Origin: an uncultured Phycisphaerales bacterium
GTDB taxonomy: Bacteria; Planctomycetota; Phycisphaerae; Tepidisphaerales; Tepidisphaeraceae
DNA length: 64,000 nucleotides
Direction: 5' to 3'
NCBI GenBank assembly: GCA_963755915.1
Contig: CAVWLP010000003.1
Span: forward strand, 192,001-256,000
This document shows, piece by piece, positions 25,880 to 31,928 of this stretch. The position numbers were made by a program, and so were the translations under genes. The notes beneath the pieces were generated by a model, which was not told the origin of the DNA, made no database searches, and saw nothing but the letters and a program-made list of their open reading frames with translations. How positions within the stretch are numbered: position 1 is the first letter of the stretch; every line of letters begins with the position of its first letter.

Positions 25880-26602
25880 TTACACCGGTGGAATCATTTC
25901 CGCCACCGGCGCCGGCGACGCTTGCGCTCCCTCGGGCAGAAGGTCGGCATAATATCGGCCGTCCCGGATCACGGTCTCACCCACCCGCACGGCCACGGGG
26001 CGGTGGAAAATGGGGCCGTCGTAAACGAAGGAGTGAAATTCACCGTACTCGCCGCAGGGGTCGATTCCGGGCGGCAGATCGCGCAGAAATTCGGCGTCGA
26101 AGGGCCTGCCGACAAATCCCGGTCCCACCTTCCCCTCAACGCAGGAAATGAAGGCCTTGAATCCCATCGCGATCACCTCGCGGGCTAACTGGGTCGTGTC
26201 CCGCTTCCAAACGGGAAAAACTCCCCGCATACCGGCCTTGGCCAGATTGGCCTCACGCCAGGCCCGAAGGTCTTCCAGAAACAGATCTCCAAAGGCGACG
26301 GTTTGGACGCCCCGCGCCTGAAATTTGGCCAGCGCATCGCCCATGATCTGCTCAAAAATTTCGTTGGTGCAGGGATGGGAGCCGCCGGATGGGAAGTAGA
26401 TTTTTTCCAGGGCGATGCCGAGCGCTTCGGCCTGCTGGTCGAGAAGAATTTCGCGCACGCCGTGATGGCTGATCCTGCGATATTCTTCGGATACAGAAAC
26501 GAGCAGCGCCACGATTTCGTACTGGCCGCTCTTGAGCAGCTCATAAACGGCCATGGCGCTGTCTTTACCGCCGCTCCAGGACATGATCACAGGCGTCTTC
26601 AT
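25880..26602 (-). CDS. Adenine nucleotide alpha-hydrolase, Dph6/MJ0570-like ATP-binding protein
   Basis: SWSGGKDS PP-loop, FGDLFLEDLR.WRE, DPCGEYGEFHSFV.DGP.F. Confidence 0.88.
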   Translation of the reverse strand: MKTPVIMSWSGGKDSAMAVYELLKSGQYEIVALLVSVSEEYRRISHHGVREILLDQQAEALGIALEKIYFPSGGSHPCTNEIFEQIMGDALAKFQARGVQTVAFGDLFLEDLRAWREANLAKAGMRGVFPVWKRDTTQLAREVIAMGFKAFISCVEGKVGPGFVGRPFDAEFLRDLPPGIDPCGEYGEFHSFVYDGPIFHRPVAVRVGETVIRDGRYYADLLPEGAQASPAPVAEMIPPV

Positions 26603-26647
26603 CTACTCTTCTCCCGATGGCACGAACCACGGCTCGCTTAACTCTAC

Positions 26648-27040
26648 TTACACGGCCGAGAATTTGTCCAGGCATGACGGACAGAGACAACCTTGGTAAT
26701 CCTGCTCCAGCCGCTTAAGCGTATCGGGGCTGAGGCGAACGGTCTCGCACCAGCAACCGCCATCCGTGCAACAGTCAAAGCCGTTGCCACACTTCGGACA
26801 GACTTTCGCTTGCACGCGTGCGGGACATTCGGCACTGGCAGGCTTACTGTTTGGATACGGACAGTTTCGGCAGCCACTGCCGCAGCACGAGCCGCGAGCG
26901 AGAAGGAAATCGCGCGAGATCGCACCATCCTCGTCAAGAAATGGAAGCAATTGGCCTGCACAAGTTTCACAAACCTCGCGGGACAATGTCTGACGGACCG
27001 CCAGGCACTTTGGGCAGAATCGAAGGATCCTTAGCGGCAT
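26648..27040 (-). CDS. Cys-rich protein (zinc ribbon, DUF5522-like and CWC-like domains)
   Basis: CPKC..CETC, FLLARGSCCGSGCRNCPY, CPKCG..F.C....CWC, CLCPSCL. Confidence 0.75.
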   Translation of the reverse strand: MPLRILRFCPKCLAVRQTLSREVCETCAGQLLPFLDEDGAISRDFLLARGSCCGSGCRNCPYPNSKPASAECPARVQAKVCPKCGNGFDCCTDGGCWCETVRLSPDTLKRLEQDYQGCLCPSCLDKFSAV

Positions 27041-27103
27041 TATTTTGCATGTTACCTGCTATCGATATCCGGTCCAGCTTAGAGCGGTTGCGATTGAAAC
27101 GCG

Positions 27104-27390
27104 TTTAACCGCCAAAACGCCAAGGTCGCCAGGAAAGAAAAGATTTGGAACCGCGGATTGCGCGGATGGACTTCGGCGAGCGCTCAGTCGAGCCGCGCGG
27201 ATAAAGGCAAAGAGACCGTCCTCGAATTCTTATCCGTGCCGGCTCGACTGAGCGCTCGCCGAAGTCCATCCGTGAAATCAGTGGTTATTTTTGTATATTC
27301 TTCGCGCGGTTCGACTGCCTTCGGTTCTGAGGCTCAGGCTCGAAGAGAGCTCACCGAAGTCTCTTGGCGTCCTGGTGGTTAAAAATCTTT
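27104..27390. repeat. Four-level nested repeat composite (C arms, B palindrome, E1 elements, E2 element)
   Basis: E1 at 27169-27194, 27241-27266 and 27308-27361; E2 at 27318-27347 inside E1. Confidence 0.85.
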
Positions 27391-29306
27391 TCAGTTCCGA
27401 CCCAGATGAATCGCCAGCACGGTCACATCCGAGGGCGTGATGCCGCTGATGCGCAGGGCCTGCCCCAAACTGCGGGGATTGAATTTCGTGAACTTCTGCT
27501 TTGCTTCGTTGCGCAGGCCGACGACCCGCGAATAATCCGTGGCCAGCGGGATCAGCTTTGTCTCCAGCTTGGCGAACCGCTCGATTTCGCGGTCCTGGCG
27601 GGCGATGTAGCCTTCGTATTTGATGCGAATTTCCAGACGCTGGGCGACGTCGGGGGAGACGAAGCGGCCAGTTGCGGATAGCGGCGGGTCATCTCTTCAT
27701 GCGCGAAATCCGGGCTGCGGAAAACGGTTTCGGCGCGAAGCTCGCGAATTAACTCGGCGCCGGCGGAAATCGCGTCCCGGCGGGCGGAGAACTGGCGCCA
27801 GCGATGGTCGTCGACCAGGCCGATCTCGCGGCCGATGGGGGTGAGGCGTTCATCGGCGTTGTCGTTGCGAAGATGCAGGCGATGCTCGGCGCGGCTGGTG
27901 AACATGCGATACGGCTCGGTCGGTGGCTTGGTCACCAGGTCGTCGACGAGGACGCCGATGTACGCCTGATCGCGGCGCAGGACGAAATCGGCCTCGCCGC
28001 CGGCGGCATAGCGGGCGGCGTTGATGCCGGCGATGAGGCCCTGGGCGGCGGCCTCTTCGTAGCCGCTGGTGCCGTTGATCTGGCCGGCGAGAAACAGGCC
28101 GGCGATGCGCTTGGTTTGGAGCGTGCTTTGGATCTGCGTCGGCCAGACCATGTCGTATTCGACGGCATAGCCATAGCGGAGAAATTTCGCGTGCTCCAGG
28201 CCGGGGATCAGGCGGACGATGTGTTCCTGCACGTCGGCCGGGAGCGAAGTGCTGATGCCGTTGCAGTAGATTTCGTCGGTGTCGAGGCCTTCGGGCTCGA
28301 GGAAAATCTGATGGCGATCCTTGTCGGCGAAGCGGACGACCTTGTCTTCGATGCTGGGGCAATAGCGCGGGCCGGTGCTTTGAATCTGGCCGGTGTACAT
28401 CGGGGCGCGGTGGAGATTCTGGCGGATGATTTCGTGGATTTCCTGGCACGTGCCGGTGATCCAGCAATTCACCTGCGGCAGCGGAGGGGACCATTCACCC
28501 GCATATTCATTCAAATAGGAAAACGGCGCGGGCCGCTCGTCGCCGGGCTGGTTTTCGAAGGCCGGAAAATCGATCGACTGCCGCTGCAAGCGCGGCGGGG
28601 TGCCGGTCTTGAGGCGGCCCATTTCCAGGCCGAGGTTTTGGAGGCAGGCGGTCAGGCCAGAGGCGGCAGCTTCGCCGACGCGGCCGCCTTCGGTTTGTTT
28701 TTCGCCGGTGTGCATGAGGCCGCGGAGGAAGGTGCCGGTGGTGACGATTGCGGCGCGGCAATGGAGGTGGGTGCCGTCTTTGAGGATGATGGCGCTGACG
28801 GCGGGAGTTGTGCTCGTGCCGAATCCACTGTGTGAGTTTTGGGCTTTGAATTCCGCCGGTGAGGACACCGGCGGCACTCTGGTTGCCGGCGAAGTTGTGG
28901 AGGGAAAAGTAGAGCAGAAGGGCGAGGTGCAAATCTCGGCGACTTCGCCTTGAACGATCGTCAGGTTTGGGCAGGTGTGCAAAAGCTCCTGCACGCGTTT
29001 GGCATATTTGTATTTGTCGGCCTGGGCGCGCGGCCCCCACACTGCCGGGCCCTTGGAGCGATTGAGCATGCGGAACTGAATTCCGGTGTCGTCGGTGGCG
29101 AGGCCCATCAGGCCGCCGAGGGCGTCGATCTCGCGGACCATCTGGCCCTTGGCGAGTCCCCCGATGGCCGGATTGCACGACATCTGGCCGATTTTGGTTT
29201 GGTCCATGGTGATCAGGGCGACGCTGGCGCCGAGGCGGGAGGCAGCCCAGGCGGCTTCGGCGCCGGCGTGACCTCCGCCGATGATGATGATGTCGTAACC
29301 GGCCAT
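27391..29306 (-). CDS. mnmG: tRNA uridine 5-carboxymethylaminomethyl modification enzyme; frameshift near 27660
   Basis: IIGGGHAGAEAA, MSCNPAIGG.AKG, LNRSKGPAV, RLKTGTPPR, GPRYCPSIEDK, AGQINGTSGYEEAAAQG, EPYRMFTSRAE; C-terminus ISGITPSD. Confidence 0.96.
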
Positions 29307-31079
29307 TCCTGGACTACCAAGTCCCCAAATTCGTCGTGCCACAAAATCTTTTCGCCATTATAAGAGCGCTGCTCGCGCATGGCCACGATGGTGAGATCGG
29401 GGGGCTGGGGCGGCATTTTTCCCGCGAGGATCAGGGGAATCCTGTCGGCGGCGGGAAGATACTGGCCGATCGGCTCGGAGATCGGCATGGGGACCTCGGC
29501 GGCCTCCCGCCAGCAGAGATAGGTCGGCCACGTTCCGATGTTATCGACCAGGGTATGGGCCGGGGTATTCTGGCGAATCCAGTCACACATTTGTACATAT
29601 TGCGCGGACGGCTCGAAGAGGTTTTCCATCTGCGCCCATCTGCGAAAATCGACGACCGGCGCAACGAAAATTAAGAGCATGCAAATCCACTGGGGCGCTT
29701 TTAGCCTGGCCCCGAGGCAATTGAGCGCGGCTGCCGCGAACATCGCGAGGAAATAATTCAAATCGGCAAGAAATCGAGAGGGGGTAAAAAATCCTGCCGT
29801 CAGGTGAAATGTGGCGGGAATGACATATTCGCCCAGCACAAACATTACCGCCAGCAGGGTCGAGGCGATGATGACGATCGGGTCGAGCCGGATTTTTCGA
29901 GCGAGGGCCAAGGCGATTCCGGCAAGGGCAAAACCGCTGAGCACATATCCCAGCTCGCGCGGAAGAGTGATCAGCGAAAGGATCGGCTCCCCGGCCGTGG
30001 TCATGCCGGTGGAGTGAAACGTGTTTAAATGAGCGGCGTAGGGGATGAGATAAAATGCGTCCAGGAGGATGCCGCAGATGGCGGCGGTGGCCAGGTTGGG
30101 CCAGCGTTTATCCCGGAGGATCTGCCACAAGGCGATGAAGAGCAAAATCGCCGACGCGGTAATCATGACGTGGTGGTGGACGAGAATAGTGGATGCGAAG
30201 AGCAGGGCCATTGCGACGGTTTGGCGATATTTTGTGGCGCTAGCGAACGAACCCCCTCCCCTGCCCTCCCCTCTTCGAGCCTGAGCCTCTCTTCGAGCCC
30301 GAGCCTCAGAGCCGAGGGCAGAGCCGAAGGCCGGATTACCGGGGGCGGGGGAAAGAGTCAGCATCGCGATGAACAGGAGCATCGCCAGTTCATTGGGCAG
30401 CGCCGCCCAGCGGAAATAATCGATGCTTCCATCCCAGGCCCAAAGGCCATAAATGCCCGCGGCATAAATTGCGATGGTTGCGCTGCCACAAACCCGACGT
30501 GCCAGGAGATACATTTGTGCCGTGGTGAGGACGCCCAGCAGCGGTATGAGATCTTTGAAGACGGTGTGCAGGGGCAAGCCGGAAATCCCCGACAAAAGCA
30601 CCAGCAGCACGTGGCTGCCGGTGGGATAATTCAGCGGCACGCCGGCGAAGGGCCAGCGATCGATGGCGTGGTGAGTGAGCTGAATCTGGCGGGCCAGAAT
30701 CAAATGAAACACCGGATCGAGCCACCCCGCGGGCAAAACCCGTGGGAGCGCGACGGCATAACGGCTAACGCCGACGACGACGAGAATCAAAACCAGCCAG
30801 ATTTGCGAAGGATTTCTGCTTGTGCCAGGGGTCGCGCGTGCCCTCACGCAACCCACGATACAGAGGAGCGTAAAAATTCCCCAAACCGGATAAAACAATC
30901 TCAGATCAAAGTGGCTGACAACGGCCCCAAGGTAGACAGCGCCCGCCAGGCCGAGCGAACTTCCAGTCGCAAACCAGTCCAGCCACCCCTCACCAAGCGC
31001 TGAGAGCGCGAGCCAGACAAATGCCCGGGATTAGAAAAAGTGCGGCGGCCGCGAGAAAGCGGATCAGCTCCATCGCCAT
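29213..31079 (-). CDS. Polytopic membrane protein (GT-C-like, tentative); frameshifts near the 5' end
   Basis: Many TM helices; WLDPVFH and NYPTGSH loop motifs resemble GT-C/DUF6541-like proteins. Contains an in-frame repeat-derived insert. Confidence 0.6.
30252..30352. repeat. Family A REP containing E2, which contains a second E2; lies in-frame inside a CDS
   Basis: Outer E2 is 30271-30288 plus 30319-30330; inner E2 is 30289-30318. Each is 30 nt. Confidence 0.85.
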
Positions 31080-31127
31080 GCGAAAAGAGTGGAAGCGAAG
31101 GAGGGAGGAAATGCAATCGGAGGAATC

Positions 31128-31928
31128 TCACTGACCCGTCGGATCAGGCTCGGTTGCCGGTCCTCCGCCGCCGAAATCCCAGGGATCGAGGAAGGCCTCA
31201 AAGTCGTTGTTGTTGTTCAAGATCAGCTTCATTTCGACGTGCATATCGAGGAACAAGTAGTTGGAACCCAAATGTAATCCGTGGCGCGTTGCATCGATTT
31301 TGCCGTTTTCGTAGTCGCCGTATTCCATGTAGTAGTCGCCGACCGCGGAAACTTTTTCACCCATCAGGATGGCATTAGACGGCGACATGTGGTTCGGCAG
31401 CGGGGTTCCGTATTTTTCGTTGTAGTACGACATGTAGGCATTGAGAATATAGGTGTGCAACCCGTTCGGTGGCGGGTCCGTATTATCTGTTGGACAAGTA
31501 ATCACGCCCGTTTTGTATGACCCCAGCACTACCGACGGCCAGGTGTTGTAGGTGTAGATAGGCCAATACGGCTGATAGGCCGGATTAAGAACCAGATTGG
31601 TTTGTCCGTTGTAAAGCGTCCCACCAATCAGTCCATCGTCGCCGGGTGTCTTATAATAAACCGAATTTGTGCTCCAGCCCATACCCGTCGGAAACAGCCA
31701 GCCGCTCCACTGATCGGCGTACGCGAGCATCGCGACGCCGCATTGCCGCATGTTGCTGGCGCATTGGACGGCTTCGGATTGCTGGCGGGCTTTTGTCAGA
31801 GCCGGCATCAGAAACGAAATGACGACGGCAATGATGCCGATGACCACCAGCAATTCGACCAGCGTAAACCCGGCGCAGAATGATTTGCGACTTCCCATGC
31901 CCGATGATCCTGTGAATGGACGCAACAT
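31128..31928 (-). CDS. Prepilin-type N-terminal cleavage/methylation protein (DUF1559/H-X9-DG type)
   Basis: GFTLVELLVVIGIIAVVISFLMPAL.KAR...C.SN.RQ; C-terminal RH....NYLFLDMH. Confidence 0.88.
   Translation of the reverse strand: MLRPFTGSSGMGSRKSFCAGFTLVELLVVIGIIAVVISFLMPALTKARQQSEAVQCASNMRQCGVAMLAYADQWSGWLFPTGMGWSTNSVYYKTPGDDGLIGGTLYNGQTNLVLNPAYQPYWPIYTYNTWPSVVLGSYKTGVITCPTDNTDPPPNGLHTYILNAYMSYYNEKYGTPLPNHMSPSNAILMGEKVSAVGDYYMEYGDYENGKIDATRHGLHLGSNYLFLDMHVEMKLILNNNNDFEAFLDPWDFGGGGPATEPDPTGQ

Follow-up and report, generated by a model that had tools for sequence, protein, structure and literature searches.

We find that E2, a sequence of 30 nt that occurs at two sites of the stretch of DNA analysed here (64,000 nt from an uncultured Phycisphaerales bacterium, hereafter the window), is gained or lost whole, to the nucleotide. 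On balance, we favour the view that E2 is a discrete, non-coding and quasi-palindromic mobile DNA unit, made up of 29 nt and one base shared with the target, which is non-autonomous and moved in trans. The family of tiny elements to which it belongs comprises E1 (24 nt), E2 and a second form, E2' (30 nt each), and a 28-nt variant. Because E2 inserts exactly into its own copies and occurs letter-identical in many unrelated phyla, it looks like a very small mobile element, among the smallest known. If a 30-nt sequence can move as a unit by itself, this would set a lower bound on the cis requirements of a transposable element. The mechanism of very small mobile repeats has been a question since the cyanobacterial SDRs were described.

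Nested copies and empty orthologous sites

The first E2 copy of the window (CCTTCGGTTCTGAGGCTCAGGCTCGAAGAG, 30 nt, with T at position 8) lies on the plus strand at 27318-27347. It splits a 24-nt E1 at CTG|AG, with the left 10 nt of this host (GGTTCGACTG) at 27308-27317 and the right 14 nt (AGCTCACCGAAGTC) beyond the insertion point, at 27348-27361 of the same strand. The second site, at 30271-30330 on the minus strand, holds a nested pair between REP-like hairpin arms at CCGG|GGG (minus-strand reading). Here the first 12 nt of an outer E2 (CCTTCGGCTCTG, 30319-30330) and its last 18 nt (AGGCTCAGGCTCGAAGAG, 30271-30288), both in minus-strand reading, enclose an inner E2 of 30 nt with two consensus mismatches (30289-30318, minus strand), which was inserted in the outer copy at CTG|AG. 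The surrounding REP-A hairpin repeat has its 5' arm (CCCCCGCCCCCGGTAATCCGG) at 30331-30351 of the minus strand, ending in CCGG|, the insertion point, and its 3' arm (GGGAGGGCAGGGGAGGGGG) at 30252-30270. Both arrangements, E2 within E1 and E2 within an E2 that itself splits a REP, were described in a first-pass annotation of this DNA and can be seen directly in the sequence. Two uninterrupted E2 copies were found, while none was expected from 100 dinucleotide shuffles. An empty E1 target is also present: the uninterrupted hairpin repeat GAATTCCGCCGGTGAGGACA|CCGGCGGCACTC inside mnmG (28848-28879, plus strand) is of a type that hosts E1 elsewhere, and the E1-filled versions read ccgccggtgaggacac|E1|cggcggcac.

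In the sister species G001, both E2 sites of the window are empty, by gaps of exactly 30 and 60 nt. The first orthologous site carries E1 without E2, and the second carries the REP-A hairpin without the full 60 nt. G001 has 29 E2 copies of its own, and a collinear region could be found in the source genome (G000) for 20 of them. None of these 20 regions contains an intact E2; five are exact empty REP-A sites and one holds a decayed copy. The empty orthologous sites and the lack of any shared intact site among the 20 indicate that E2 is a discrete unit rather than a product of slippage, as had been proposed from the window alone, and that its gain or loss has been recent. The nested pair lies in frame, together with REP-A, in a 561-aa open reading frame for a multi-pass membrane protein (29213-30898, minus strand), whose orthologues form a stepwise series: no insert in G009 and G005, REP only in G001, and REP plus two copies of E2 in G000. 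In the alignment, the insert grows in size across the orthologues and the frame is preserved on both sides. This series, and the G001 sites with E1 or REP but no E2, bear out the order of events read earlier, i.e., host repeat, then E1, then E2. As a separate observation, REP-A and E2 are often present or absent together, as a whole, between G001 and G000.

Two forms and a shared target base

E2 and E2' are two fixed forms, and their sole differences are at positions 8, 15, 22 and 30. Among 157 non-redundant copies, including 79 of E2 and 72 of E2', the last base of the left flank was identical to the last base of the element in every case (157/157). The same match was found for 56 of the 58 copies of E1 in the genome, and E1 itself is a mobile unit of the same kind as E2. 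The earlier claim of exactly 30 nt without a target site duplication (TSD) thus stands as regards length, given the exact gains of 30 and 60 nt relative to G001, but the supposed absence of a TSD is really one base shared with the left flank. With such a shared base, three descriptions fit equally well: 30 nt inserted with no TSD, 29 nt inserted with one nucleotide duplicated, or an overlap of a single base.

Insertion occurs after C-K-G for E2 and after Y-T-C for E2', with CTG|AG, CTC|AG and CCGG|GRG as the observed motifs. The flank logo of the 79 E2 copies supports the target CKG|RG that had been predicted (C in 65/79, G or T in 75/79 and G in 79/79 before the junction; G or A in 78/79 and G in 54/79 after it), and the second form, E2', uses CTC|AG. 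Relative to the host repeat, E2 always has one orientation. Host contexts among the 157 copies were REP-A (41), E1 (29), E2 or E2' (5) and other kinds (58). The centre of E2 contains CTGAG and CTCAG; hence, copies insert into copies. The insertion point is mostly enclosed by a hairpin of the host repeat: at least six pairs spanned the junction in 87% of the rebuilt empty sites (n = 158), as compared with 71% (maximum, 78%) when right flanks were swapped. A perfect-stem test with 12-nt flanks gave a weak signal (3.3 versus 2.85 pairs), and the fold test over 30 nt was clearer.

The pairs 0-8 and 22-30 change from G-C in E2 to C-G in E2', a sequence reading that draws on two haplotypes only; position 15 likewise follows the target base and is left unexplained by a pairing model. 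We infer that E2 transposes as a single-stranded hairpin. The element would be non-autonomous and mobilised in trans, its folded single strand being recognised by an enzyme; the target base would pair with position 8 and so join a 5' mini-hairpin of the element, and position 22 would pair with the terminal base of E2. Candidate enzymes would resemble a peel-and-paste HUH/Y1 transposase or a recombinase that works on hairpins of single-stranded DNA. ViennaRNA folds the element as one long hairpin rather than three mini-hairpins, with unremarkable energy (z = -1.4 for E2 and -0.7 for E2'). Hybrids of the two haplotypes were found as only four stretches in the metagenome collection. Handles on the mechanism are offered by the target-tracking variable bases of the two haplotypes, the exact empty and filled sites of the sister species and a form that carries cargo.

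Distribution, cargo and candidate mechanisms

The source genome contains 31 E2 copies at up to five mismatches; its empty REP-A cores number 147 and its empty E1 cores 47. Except for the nest, neighbouring copies are kilobases apart or more, and there are no inverted doublets. E2 is present in 13 of 41 relatives and is patchy within the Planctomycetota (6 of 401 genomes). The family extends beyond the source genome and its phylum: exact E2 copies occur in metagenome-assembled genomes (MAGs) labelled as at least eight phylum-level groups, Patescibacteria among them, and all of the cross-phylum records are MAGs. The 116 loci collected are labelled Planctomycetota, Patescibacteria, Zixibacteria and other groups, with no cyanobacterial locus. 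Megablast of the two 30-mers (E2 and E2') against plasmid and phage collections gave no match, and a search of 26000-31500 against Rfam matched no family, with one chance miRNA match (E = 0.51). None of about 8.4 million texts contained E2, E2', E1 or a related hairpin as a string of letters, and a literature search by wording returned only papers on REP/REPIN/MITE and HIP1.

Five instances of an IS481-family insertion sequence (IS) in the centre of E2 were observed, as units of 1392 nt with E2 ends, which suggests that E2 ends can carry cargo. Over 1390 nt there is no difference between two of these composites (L164 and L172); their targets differ, and the last base of each changes with its target. 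One of the two proposed pairs (0-8 or 22-30) is disrupted in every IS-bearing hybrid. The enclosed IS has TGT...ACA ends of its own and a 5-bp flank, with a direct 5-bp duplication in one of the five copies, and a relative in G007 has a direct 5-bp ATTAC duplication in REP-A. The IS481-family element is therefore a guest rather than the parent of E2. At E<=1e-30, neither G001 (29 recent E2 copies) nor G015 (111 copies) gave a match to its transposase, and other pairs of E2 halves at transposon distance were found neither in G000 nor in the collected loci. On the grounds of its own ends, the 5-bp duplications and the lack of a match in G001 and G015, we rejected this IS as the parent.

No mobilising enzyme was found among the Y1 genes of the relatives, the gene neighbourhoods of the 116 loci or the enclosed IS, and no gene family recurred near E2 across those loci. 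Y1_Tnp genes occur in 36 of the 41 relatives irrespective of E2, and the two matches in G000 lack cores of E2, E1 and REP-A for about 1 kb around them; Y1 transposases were rejected as the partner for these reasons. Two further leads were set aside: an E2' of G001 has an IS200-like element only 5 nt away, but the two simply share a hotspot in a tandem array, and a 2.8-kb repeat of about 30 copies that contains CCTTCGGCTCTG is an IS21-family IS unrelated to E2. GC skew was too noisy for placing replichores, and hence for a reading of replication-strand bias. The presence of copies across many phyla makes phylogenetic profiling for the partner enzyme possible. Our interpretation could tentatively be taken further, to the less likely proposal that E1, E2 and E2' are an undescribed class of ultra-small transposable hairpins (24-30 nt), spread horizontally and letter-perfect through at least eight phyla, which insert by a new reaction in which a single shared target base is read by the unpaired positions 8 and 22. 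Either an enzyme that has escaped recognition or a host function found almost everywhere would then be the partner, and the latter would account for the presence of these elements even in the tiny genomes of Patescibacteria.

Other explanations for the mobility of E2 have to be weighed against movement in trans as a folded single strand. It is unlikely that E2 is a minimal MITE, in which two terminal inverted repeats of a DDE transposon are joined head to head and move as double-stranded DNA with a 1-bp target duplication, the transposase being elsewhere or lost. The halves of E2 do form an imperfect inverted repeat (CCTTCGG.TCTGAG with CTCAGG.TCGAAGA), the two ends have a base in common in 157/157 copies and E2-ended units around a transposase gene exist. 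However, the enclosed IS is a guest by its own ends and the ATTAC duplication of its G007 relative, its transposase is missing at the above threshold from the E2-rich G001 and G015, and G000 and the collected loci yielded no further E2-half pairs at transposon distance. We know of no IS family that makes a 1-bp target duplication. More doubtful still is an origin that involves no dedicated enzyme, through template switching or gene conversion at replication-stalling hairpin repeats, with a one-base microhomology marking the switch out and back. Such a switch would require one base common to both junctions, as observed; the targets are within hairpins; most copies are in the homologous hosts REP-A and E1, where conversion would be easy; and REP-A with E2 often comes and goes as one block. 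Nevertheless, one-base homology cannot yield a strict orientation plus the C-K-G|R-G motif, 58 of the 157 copies are in unrelated host contexts and the 1392-nt unit moved among non-homologous hosts. Moreover, two haplotypes that are letter-perfect across phyla, with so few hybrids, imply selection by a sequence-reading partner.

Mobility via an RNA intermediate (reverse splicing or reverse transcription) is improbable. Elhai and colleagues are said to have suggested an RNA route for the cyanobacterial SDR elements in 2008. Read in the letters, E2 and E2' retain two G.T wobbles (7.23 and 9.21) with the same strand assignment, and the 5' end of E2' would be able to form a C(UUCG)G tetraloop; however, there is no Rfam match, and in E2 and E2' alike the covarying pair 0-8 is compatible with a TTC triloop on a stem of three pairs, whereas UUCG fits E2' only. 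Least probable by far is that the nest is an assembly artefact or arose by slippage as a pair of neighbouring tandem duplications (AA'B'B). A duplication of 18 nt and then one of 12 nt would spell out the 60 nt, and small indel errors are possible in the window assembly, relative to which Logan contigs have one base fewer at 27660 and one fewer at 27664. A run search listed five soil or peat DNA runs and no RNA run; the contigs of four of these runs break at the repeats, ending at 30271 and 30266, and span neither E2 site, and the apparent Logan joints at 30271-30337 have sides of at most 25 nt, derived from other REP-A copies. Against an artefact or slippage, nests of these types are seen again in assemblies obtained independently from other organisms, one of them a self-nest three levels deep; an exact 30-nt unit is evident both from the single copy at 27318 and from the orthologous sites that are empty; and the inner and outer copies differ at two positions, which is unexpected for a fresh duplication.

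Comparison with known small repeats

The closest known elements to E2, likened by description, are the cyanobacterial SDRs. Elhai and colleagues reportedly described SDR1-8 of Nostoc and related cyanobacteria in 2008 as dispersed repeats of 21-27 nt, which are said to occur inside other small repeats and inside their own copies. Like E2, SDRs are tens of nucleotides long, non-coding and dispersed, enter a short host motif always at the same exact point and nest in themselves, as E2 does in the window and, three deep, elsewhere. Against the 21-27 nt of SDRs, E2 has 30 nt; E1 has 24 nt. SDRs are confined to one cyanobacterial subgroup, whereas E2 is found in at least eight phylum-level groups with no cyanobacterial locus among 116. 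We know of no sequence likeness between SDRs and E2, and, to our knowledge, neither a one-base shared end nor two co-varying haplotypes have been described for SDRs. SDR5 inserts between the third and fourth letters of HIP1, according to Elhai 2015 (PMC4390886).

REP/REPIN-RAYT systems (PMC3733652, PMC3116915 and RAREFAN) are like E2 in being G+C-rich, palindromic, non-autonomous repeats of 20-40 nt in high copy number. REPs end on one side in a tag, GTAG or CGTC, that stays unpaired (PMC3733652), and they are inherited mostly vertically (RAREFAN). E2 and E2' have neither GTAG nor CGTC at their ends and form no inverted doublets, and the distribution of E2 is patchy and cross-phylum (13/41 relatives and 6/401 genomes of the phylum) rather than vertical. 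The RAYT (Y1) gene is flanked by REPs, whereas the Y1_Tnp matches of G000 are not flanked by E2. Exact nesting of REPs within one another is not known to us. REPs are also targets for IS insertion, as stated in Delihas 2011 (PMC3184786).

E2 resembles IS200/IS605 elements, including their non-autonomous PATE derivatives, in an oriented insertion 3' of a short specific sequence with no duplication beyond the shared base. IS200/IS605 elements make no target duplication, insert in an oriented manner 3' of a short sequence and have hairpin ends rather than true inverted repeats. Their subterminal hairpins are bound by a Y1 transposase, and they move through a single-stranded circular junction, with a bias for the lagging strand. 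IS608 reads its target through base pairing with bases inside the element, and a similar recognition is proposed for E2 at positions 8 and 22. However, the ends of IS200/IS605 elements require tens of nucleotides each, whereas E2 totals 30 nt, and a one-base shared end is, as far as we know, no signature of these elements.

With MITEs, E2 has in common that both are short and non-coding, with inverted-repeat halves and with empty and filled orthologous sites, features given for MITEs in Delihas 2011 (PMC3184786). MITEs are about 100-400 bp long, with duplications of at least 2 bp and a recognisable parent IS, whereas E2 has 30 nt, at most one shared base and no parent found. The gains of exactly 30 and 60 nt leave no room in E2 for a TSD of 2 bp or more. 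Rickettsia palindromic elements (RPEs) are about 100-150 bp long and limited to one genus. Like RPEs, REP-A with its two copies of E2 lies in frame within a protein gene, here that of a membrane protein. RPEs are palindromic repeats in frame inside protein genes that stay intact (Ogata 2000, as cited in Delihas 2011). The elements of the E2 family insert 8 or 10 codons in frame into proteins, create hotspots for IS insertion and break short-read assemblies.

Copies in the window and their empty sites

Allowing 3 mismatches at most, the window yields two uninterrupted copies of the 30-nt element E2, against a chance expectation of zero. One copy, at 27318-27347 (CCTTCGGTTCTGAGGCTCAGGCTCGAAGAG), splits the 24-nt host element E1 at CTG|AG into halves lying at 27308-27317 and 27348-27361. 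At 30271-30330, on the minus strand, an inner copy with 2 mismatches (30289-30318, minus strand) divides an outer E2 into 12 + 18 nt at the CTG|AG of that outer copy, and the pair sits at CCGG|GGG between the arms (30252-30270 and 30331-30351) of REP-A, a G+C-rich hairpin repeat. The first-pass annotation had described this layout and is borne out at both sites. It had also proposed a discrete unit rather than slippage, a view with which the sister species, G001, agrees: at the first site G001 has E1 without E2, a gap of exactly 30 nt, and at the second it has REP-A in the same gene and lacks 60 nt. The nest lies within a 561-aa ORF (29213-30898, minus strand) whose reading frame is preserved. 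The encoded protein has no insert in two related genomes (G009 and G005), REP-A alone in G001, and REP-A with two E2 copies in the window's genome, G000, with the frame intact on both sides of the insert throughout; this series gives the order of events, REP before E2, that had been read from the nesting.

The window occupies C3:192001-256000 of the G000 genome (6.63 Mb, 59% G+C). This genome contains 31 E2-like 30-mers (up to 5 mismatches), the majority in REP-A at TCCGG|GRGAGGG and some in E1 at TCGACTG|AGCTC, and their orientation relative to the host repeat never varies; 147 REP-A and 47 E1 cores are uninterrupted. G001, with flanks 80 to 96% identical to those of G000, has 29 copies, of which the 20 in collinear regions were compared and the 9 without a collinear region excluded. 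At none of these 20 sites does G000 carry an intact E2; it shows an exact empty REP-A at five and an E2 with 6 mismatches at one, and at the remainder it lacks the entire REP-A or is unalignable. Hence, almost every copy is younger than the split between the two species, which are about 10% apart, and most copies are letter-perfect. These comparisons show that E2 is an insertion unit and not a product of slippage. The sole E2 site common to both genomes (G000:C2:about 1492470-1492620; locus L153 in G001) is letter-perfect in G001 and has 6/30 mismatches in G000, a decay exceeding the flank-based expectation of about 10%.

Two forms, a shared base and hairpin targets

A second form, E2' (CCTTCGGGTCTGAGCCTCAGGGTCGAAGAC), differs from E2 solely at positions 8, 15, 22 and 30, which read C,G,C,G in E2 and G,C,G,C in E2'. 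We pooled 157 copies from G000, G001 and loci among the matches listed, counting identical flank-element-flank strings once: 79 are E2, 72 E2' and 6 single-base variants. Each of the 157 ends in the same base as its left flank (G in E2, C in E2'); the pattern used to collect them allowed only G or C at positions 15, 22 and 30 and placed no constraint on the flank. The earlier claim of no target duplication therefore stands insofar as the gain can be read as exactly 30 nt, but the common base equally permits 29 nt plus one base duplicated or overlapped. The pooled E2 copies occupy C-K-G|R-G, as had been predicted, and the majority of E2' copies (C/T)-T-C|A-G, a site that is CTG|AG on the opposite strand; self-nesting follows because the middle of E2 contains both CTGAG and CTCAG. 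Hybrids are uncommon: a metagenome collection scan gave four C8 + G22 stretches, two of them identical in sequence and one a nest; of the two true hybrids, one is at a G target and the other at a C target, and in both positions 15 and 30 match the flank base.

Of the pooled copies, 41 lie in REP-A, 29 in E1, 5 in E2 or E2', 20 in two hairpin families from other phyla, 4 in a tandem array of GATTC and 58 in other contexts, many of the last being centres of lineage-specific palindromes. Reconstructed empty sites (158 sites, 30 + 30 nt, RNA energy parameters) form at least 6 junction-spanning pairs in 87% of cases, against 71% (maximum 78%) when right flanks are exchanged among copies, a control that is inflated because many flanks come from the same host families. 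A simpler test with 12-nt flanks gave a weak signal, 3.3 versus 2.85 pairs.

E1 (GGCTCGACTGAGCTCGCCGAAGTC) has 58 copies in G000 (up to 3 mismatches) in at least 10 kinds of host repeat; its flank base equals its final base (C) in 56/58, and its 3-bp stem shows compensatory changes (GGC/GCC, GGT/ACC, GAC/GTC). E1-like variants with two additional letters (GAGCGCTCAG) occur in each arm of a 47-nt inverted repeat (27149-27195 and 27240-27286, 91% complementary, 44 nt between). A hairpin repeat that carries E1 elsewhere is empty at 28848-28879 within mnmG (gidA), in a segment of about 130 nt (28800-28930) that keeps the frame but is unalignable to the G001 orthologue; a conserved housekeeping gene thus contains repeats. 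Towards its 3' end (27389-27700) mnmG is read in a frame different from that of the rest of the gene, the ORF stopping at 27552 and the conserved C-terminus reaching about 27389; Logan contigs of sequencing runs X1 and X2 have one base fewer at 27660 and one fewer at 27664, so that the cause is a difference between strains or small errors of assembly.

A 28-nt relative of E2' without positions 8 and 15 (CCTTCGGTCTGAGCTCAGGGTCGAAGAC) lies inside another repeat at G000:C2:747353, 378662, 355562 and 679129 and C3:398045; at G000:C2:814620 it is nested with E1. Other assemblies contain E2 in E2', E2' in E2, E2' holding E1 (54 nt) and E2' nested in itself three deep, which argues against an assembly artefact in the window.

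Occurrence across bacteria and composites with an insertion sequence

E2 or E2' occurs in 13/41 relatives (up to 2 mismatches; 1 to 111 copies, the maximum in G015), in 11/24 genomes of the same family and, in an even phylum sample, in 6/401 genomes (up to 1 mismatch, G000 counted). At least 116 stretches of species-representative genomes carry it. Among the matches listed, record titles name Planctomycetota (the majority), Zixibacteria, Patescibacteria (Microgenomates, Daviesbacteria, Curtissbacteria, Saccharibacteria, Wolfebacteria), Deltaproteobacteria/Thermodesulfobacteriota, Ignavibacteria, Gammaproteobacteria, Methylomirabilota and Vicinamibacteraceae; the cross-phylum records are all MAGs, for which mis-binning is possible. 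However, several copies (L062, contig of 247 kb, locus 41% G+C; L063, 527 kb, 45%; L109, 401 kb, 46%) lie on long contigs rich in A+T, inside hairpins typical of their host genomes. Neither 30-mer had a match in the plasmid or phage collections. The unpublished genome G014 enters the 41-relative E2 tally, the Y1_Tnp tally and the IS481 transposase search, and nothing else depends on it.

Five 1392-nt units in G000, 99.5 to 100% alike and all at E2-type targets, consist of a 1357-nt IS in the exact centre of E2/E2' (C2:740520-741911, C2:1049269-1050659, C2:1884574-1885963, C2:3969067-3970458 and C3:917959-919349); no copy of the IS occurs elsewhere in G000. Its ends are TGT...ACA, and its 425-aa transposase matches LZ_Tnp_IS481 and rve, which places it in the IS481 family. 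The adjacent 5-mers are AGGCT or AGCCT, a direct duplication in one copy and with a differing central base in four, a pattern unaccounted for by simple target duplication. In G007, a relative with 51% identity (L165, L168, L171), whose terminal inverted repeats measure about 69 nt, occupies REP-A centrally, and 2/3 copies show a direct ATTAC duplication; this IS lineage therefore targets palindrome centres. E2 is independent of this transposase, since none was found in G001 or G015 at E<=1e-30. One composite in REP-A and another in the GATTC array match letter for letter over 1390 nt, hybrid pattern (C8, G22) included, and the final base of each matches its own target; the simplest reading is that the entire unit may have moved via its E2 ends.

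Possible routes of transposition and related elements

The comparisons above establish that E2 is gained as an exact unit in a fixed orientation, at a short motif lying within hairpins, that it shares one base with its target and that it exists as two haplotypes. In each haplotype the flank base is complementary to position 8, and position 22 to position 30, as G-C in one form and C-G in the other. These pairs would close two mini-hairpins of 3 bp, looped by TTC and GAA, on either side of a central hairpin, and the target base would be read by pairing, much as in IS608, which reads its target in this way. Such complementarity leads us to favour, over a minimal MITE that duplicates 1 bp, template switching without an enzyme or an RNA route, a folded single strand that would be transposed by a trans-acting enzyme. 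E2 departs from the defining MITE features of duplication, parent IS and size. Against the single-strand route, however, ViennaRNA favours a single long hairpin of ordinary stability, the covariation is backed by two haplotypes only, position 15 likewise tracks the target for no reason that the model gives, and each hybrid breaks one proposed pair.

It also tells against this route that no enzyme is linked to E2. Y1_Tnp genes were considered as partner and rejected, as they occur in 36/41 relatives with or without E2 and the two in G000 have no flanking E2. No recurrent neighbour genes were found among 116 E2 loci from the matches listed. A 264-aa Y1 (HUH) transposase-like gene at G000:C3:1125007-1125801, with GGGGACGCAGCTAG words on both sides, may be RAYT-like with its own repeat family, separate from E1, E2 and REP-A.

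The closest known elements are the SDRs of cyanobacteria, which Elhai reportedly described in 2008 as very small, nested and inserted at a set point of a motif, and which E2 resembles in all three respects. SDR5, for one, inserts between the third and fourth letters of HIP1 (PMC4390886). The tag, doublets, flanked RAYT and vertical inheritance that define REP/REPIN-RAYT systems are absent from E2. The E2, E2' and E1 strings had no match in literature full texts, and there is a real chance that the transposition mechanism is new. G000 also carries about 30 copies of an IS21-family IS (IstA/IstB) of about 2.8 kb at 99.8 to 99.9% identity, including C2:2457-5243, whose istA contains a tandem repeat coding STVLAAGG several times.
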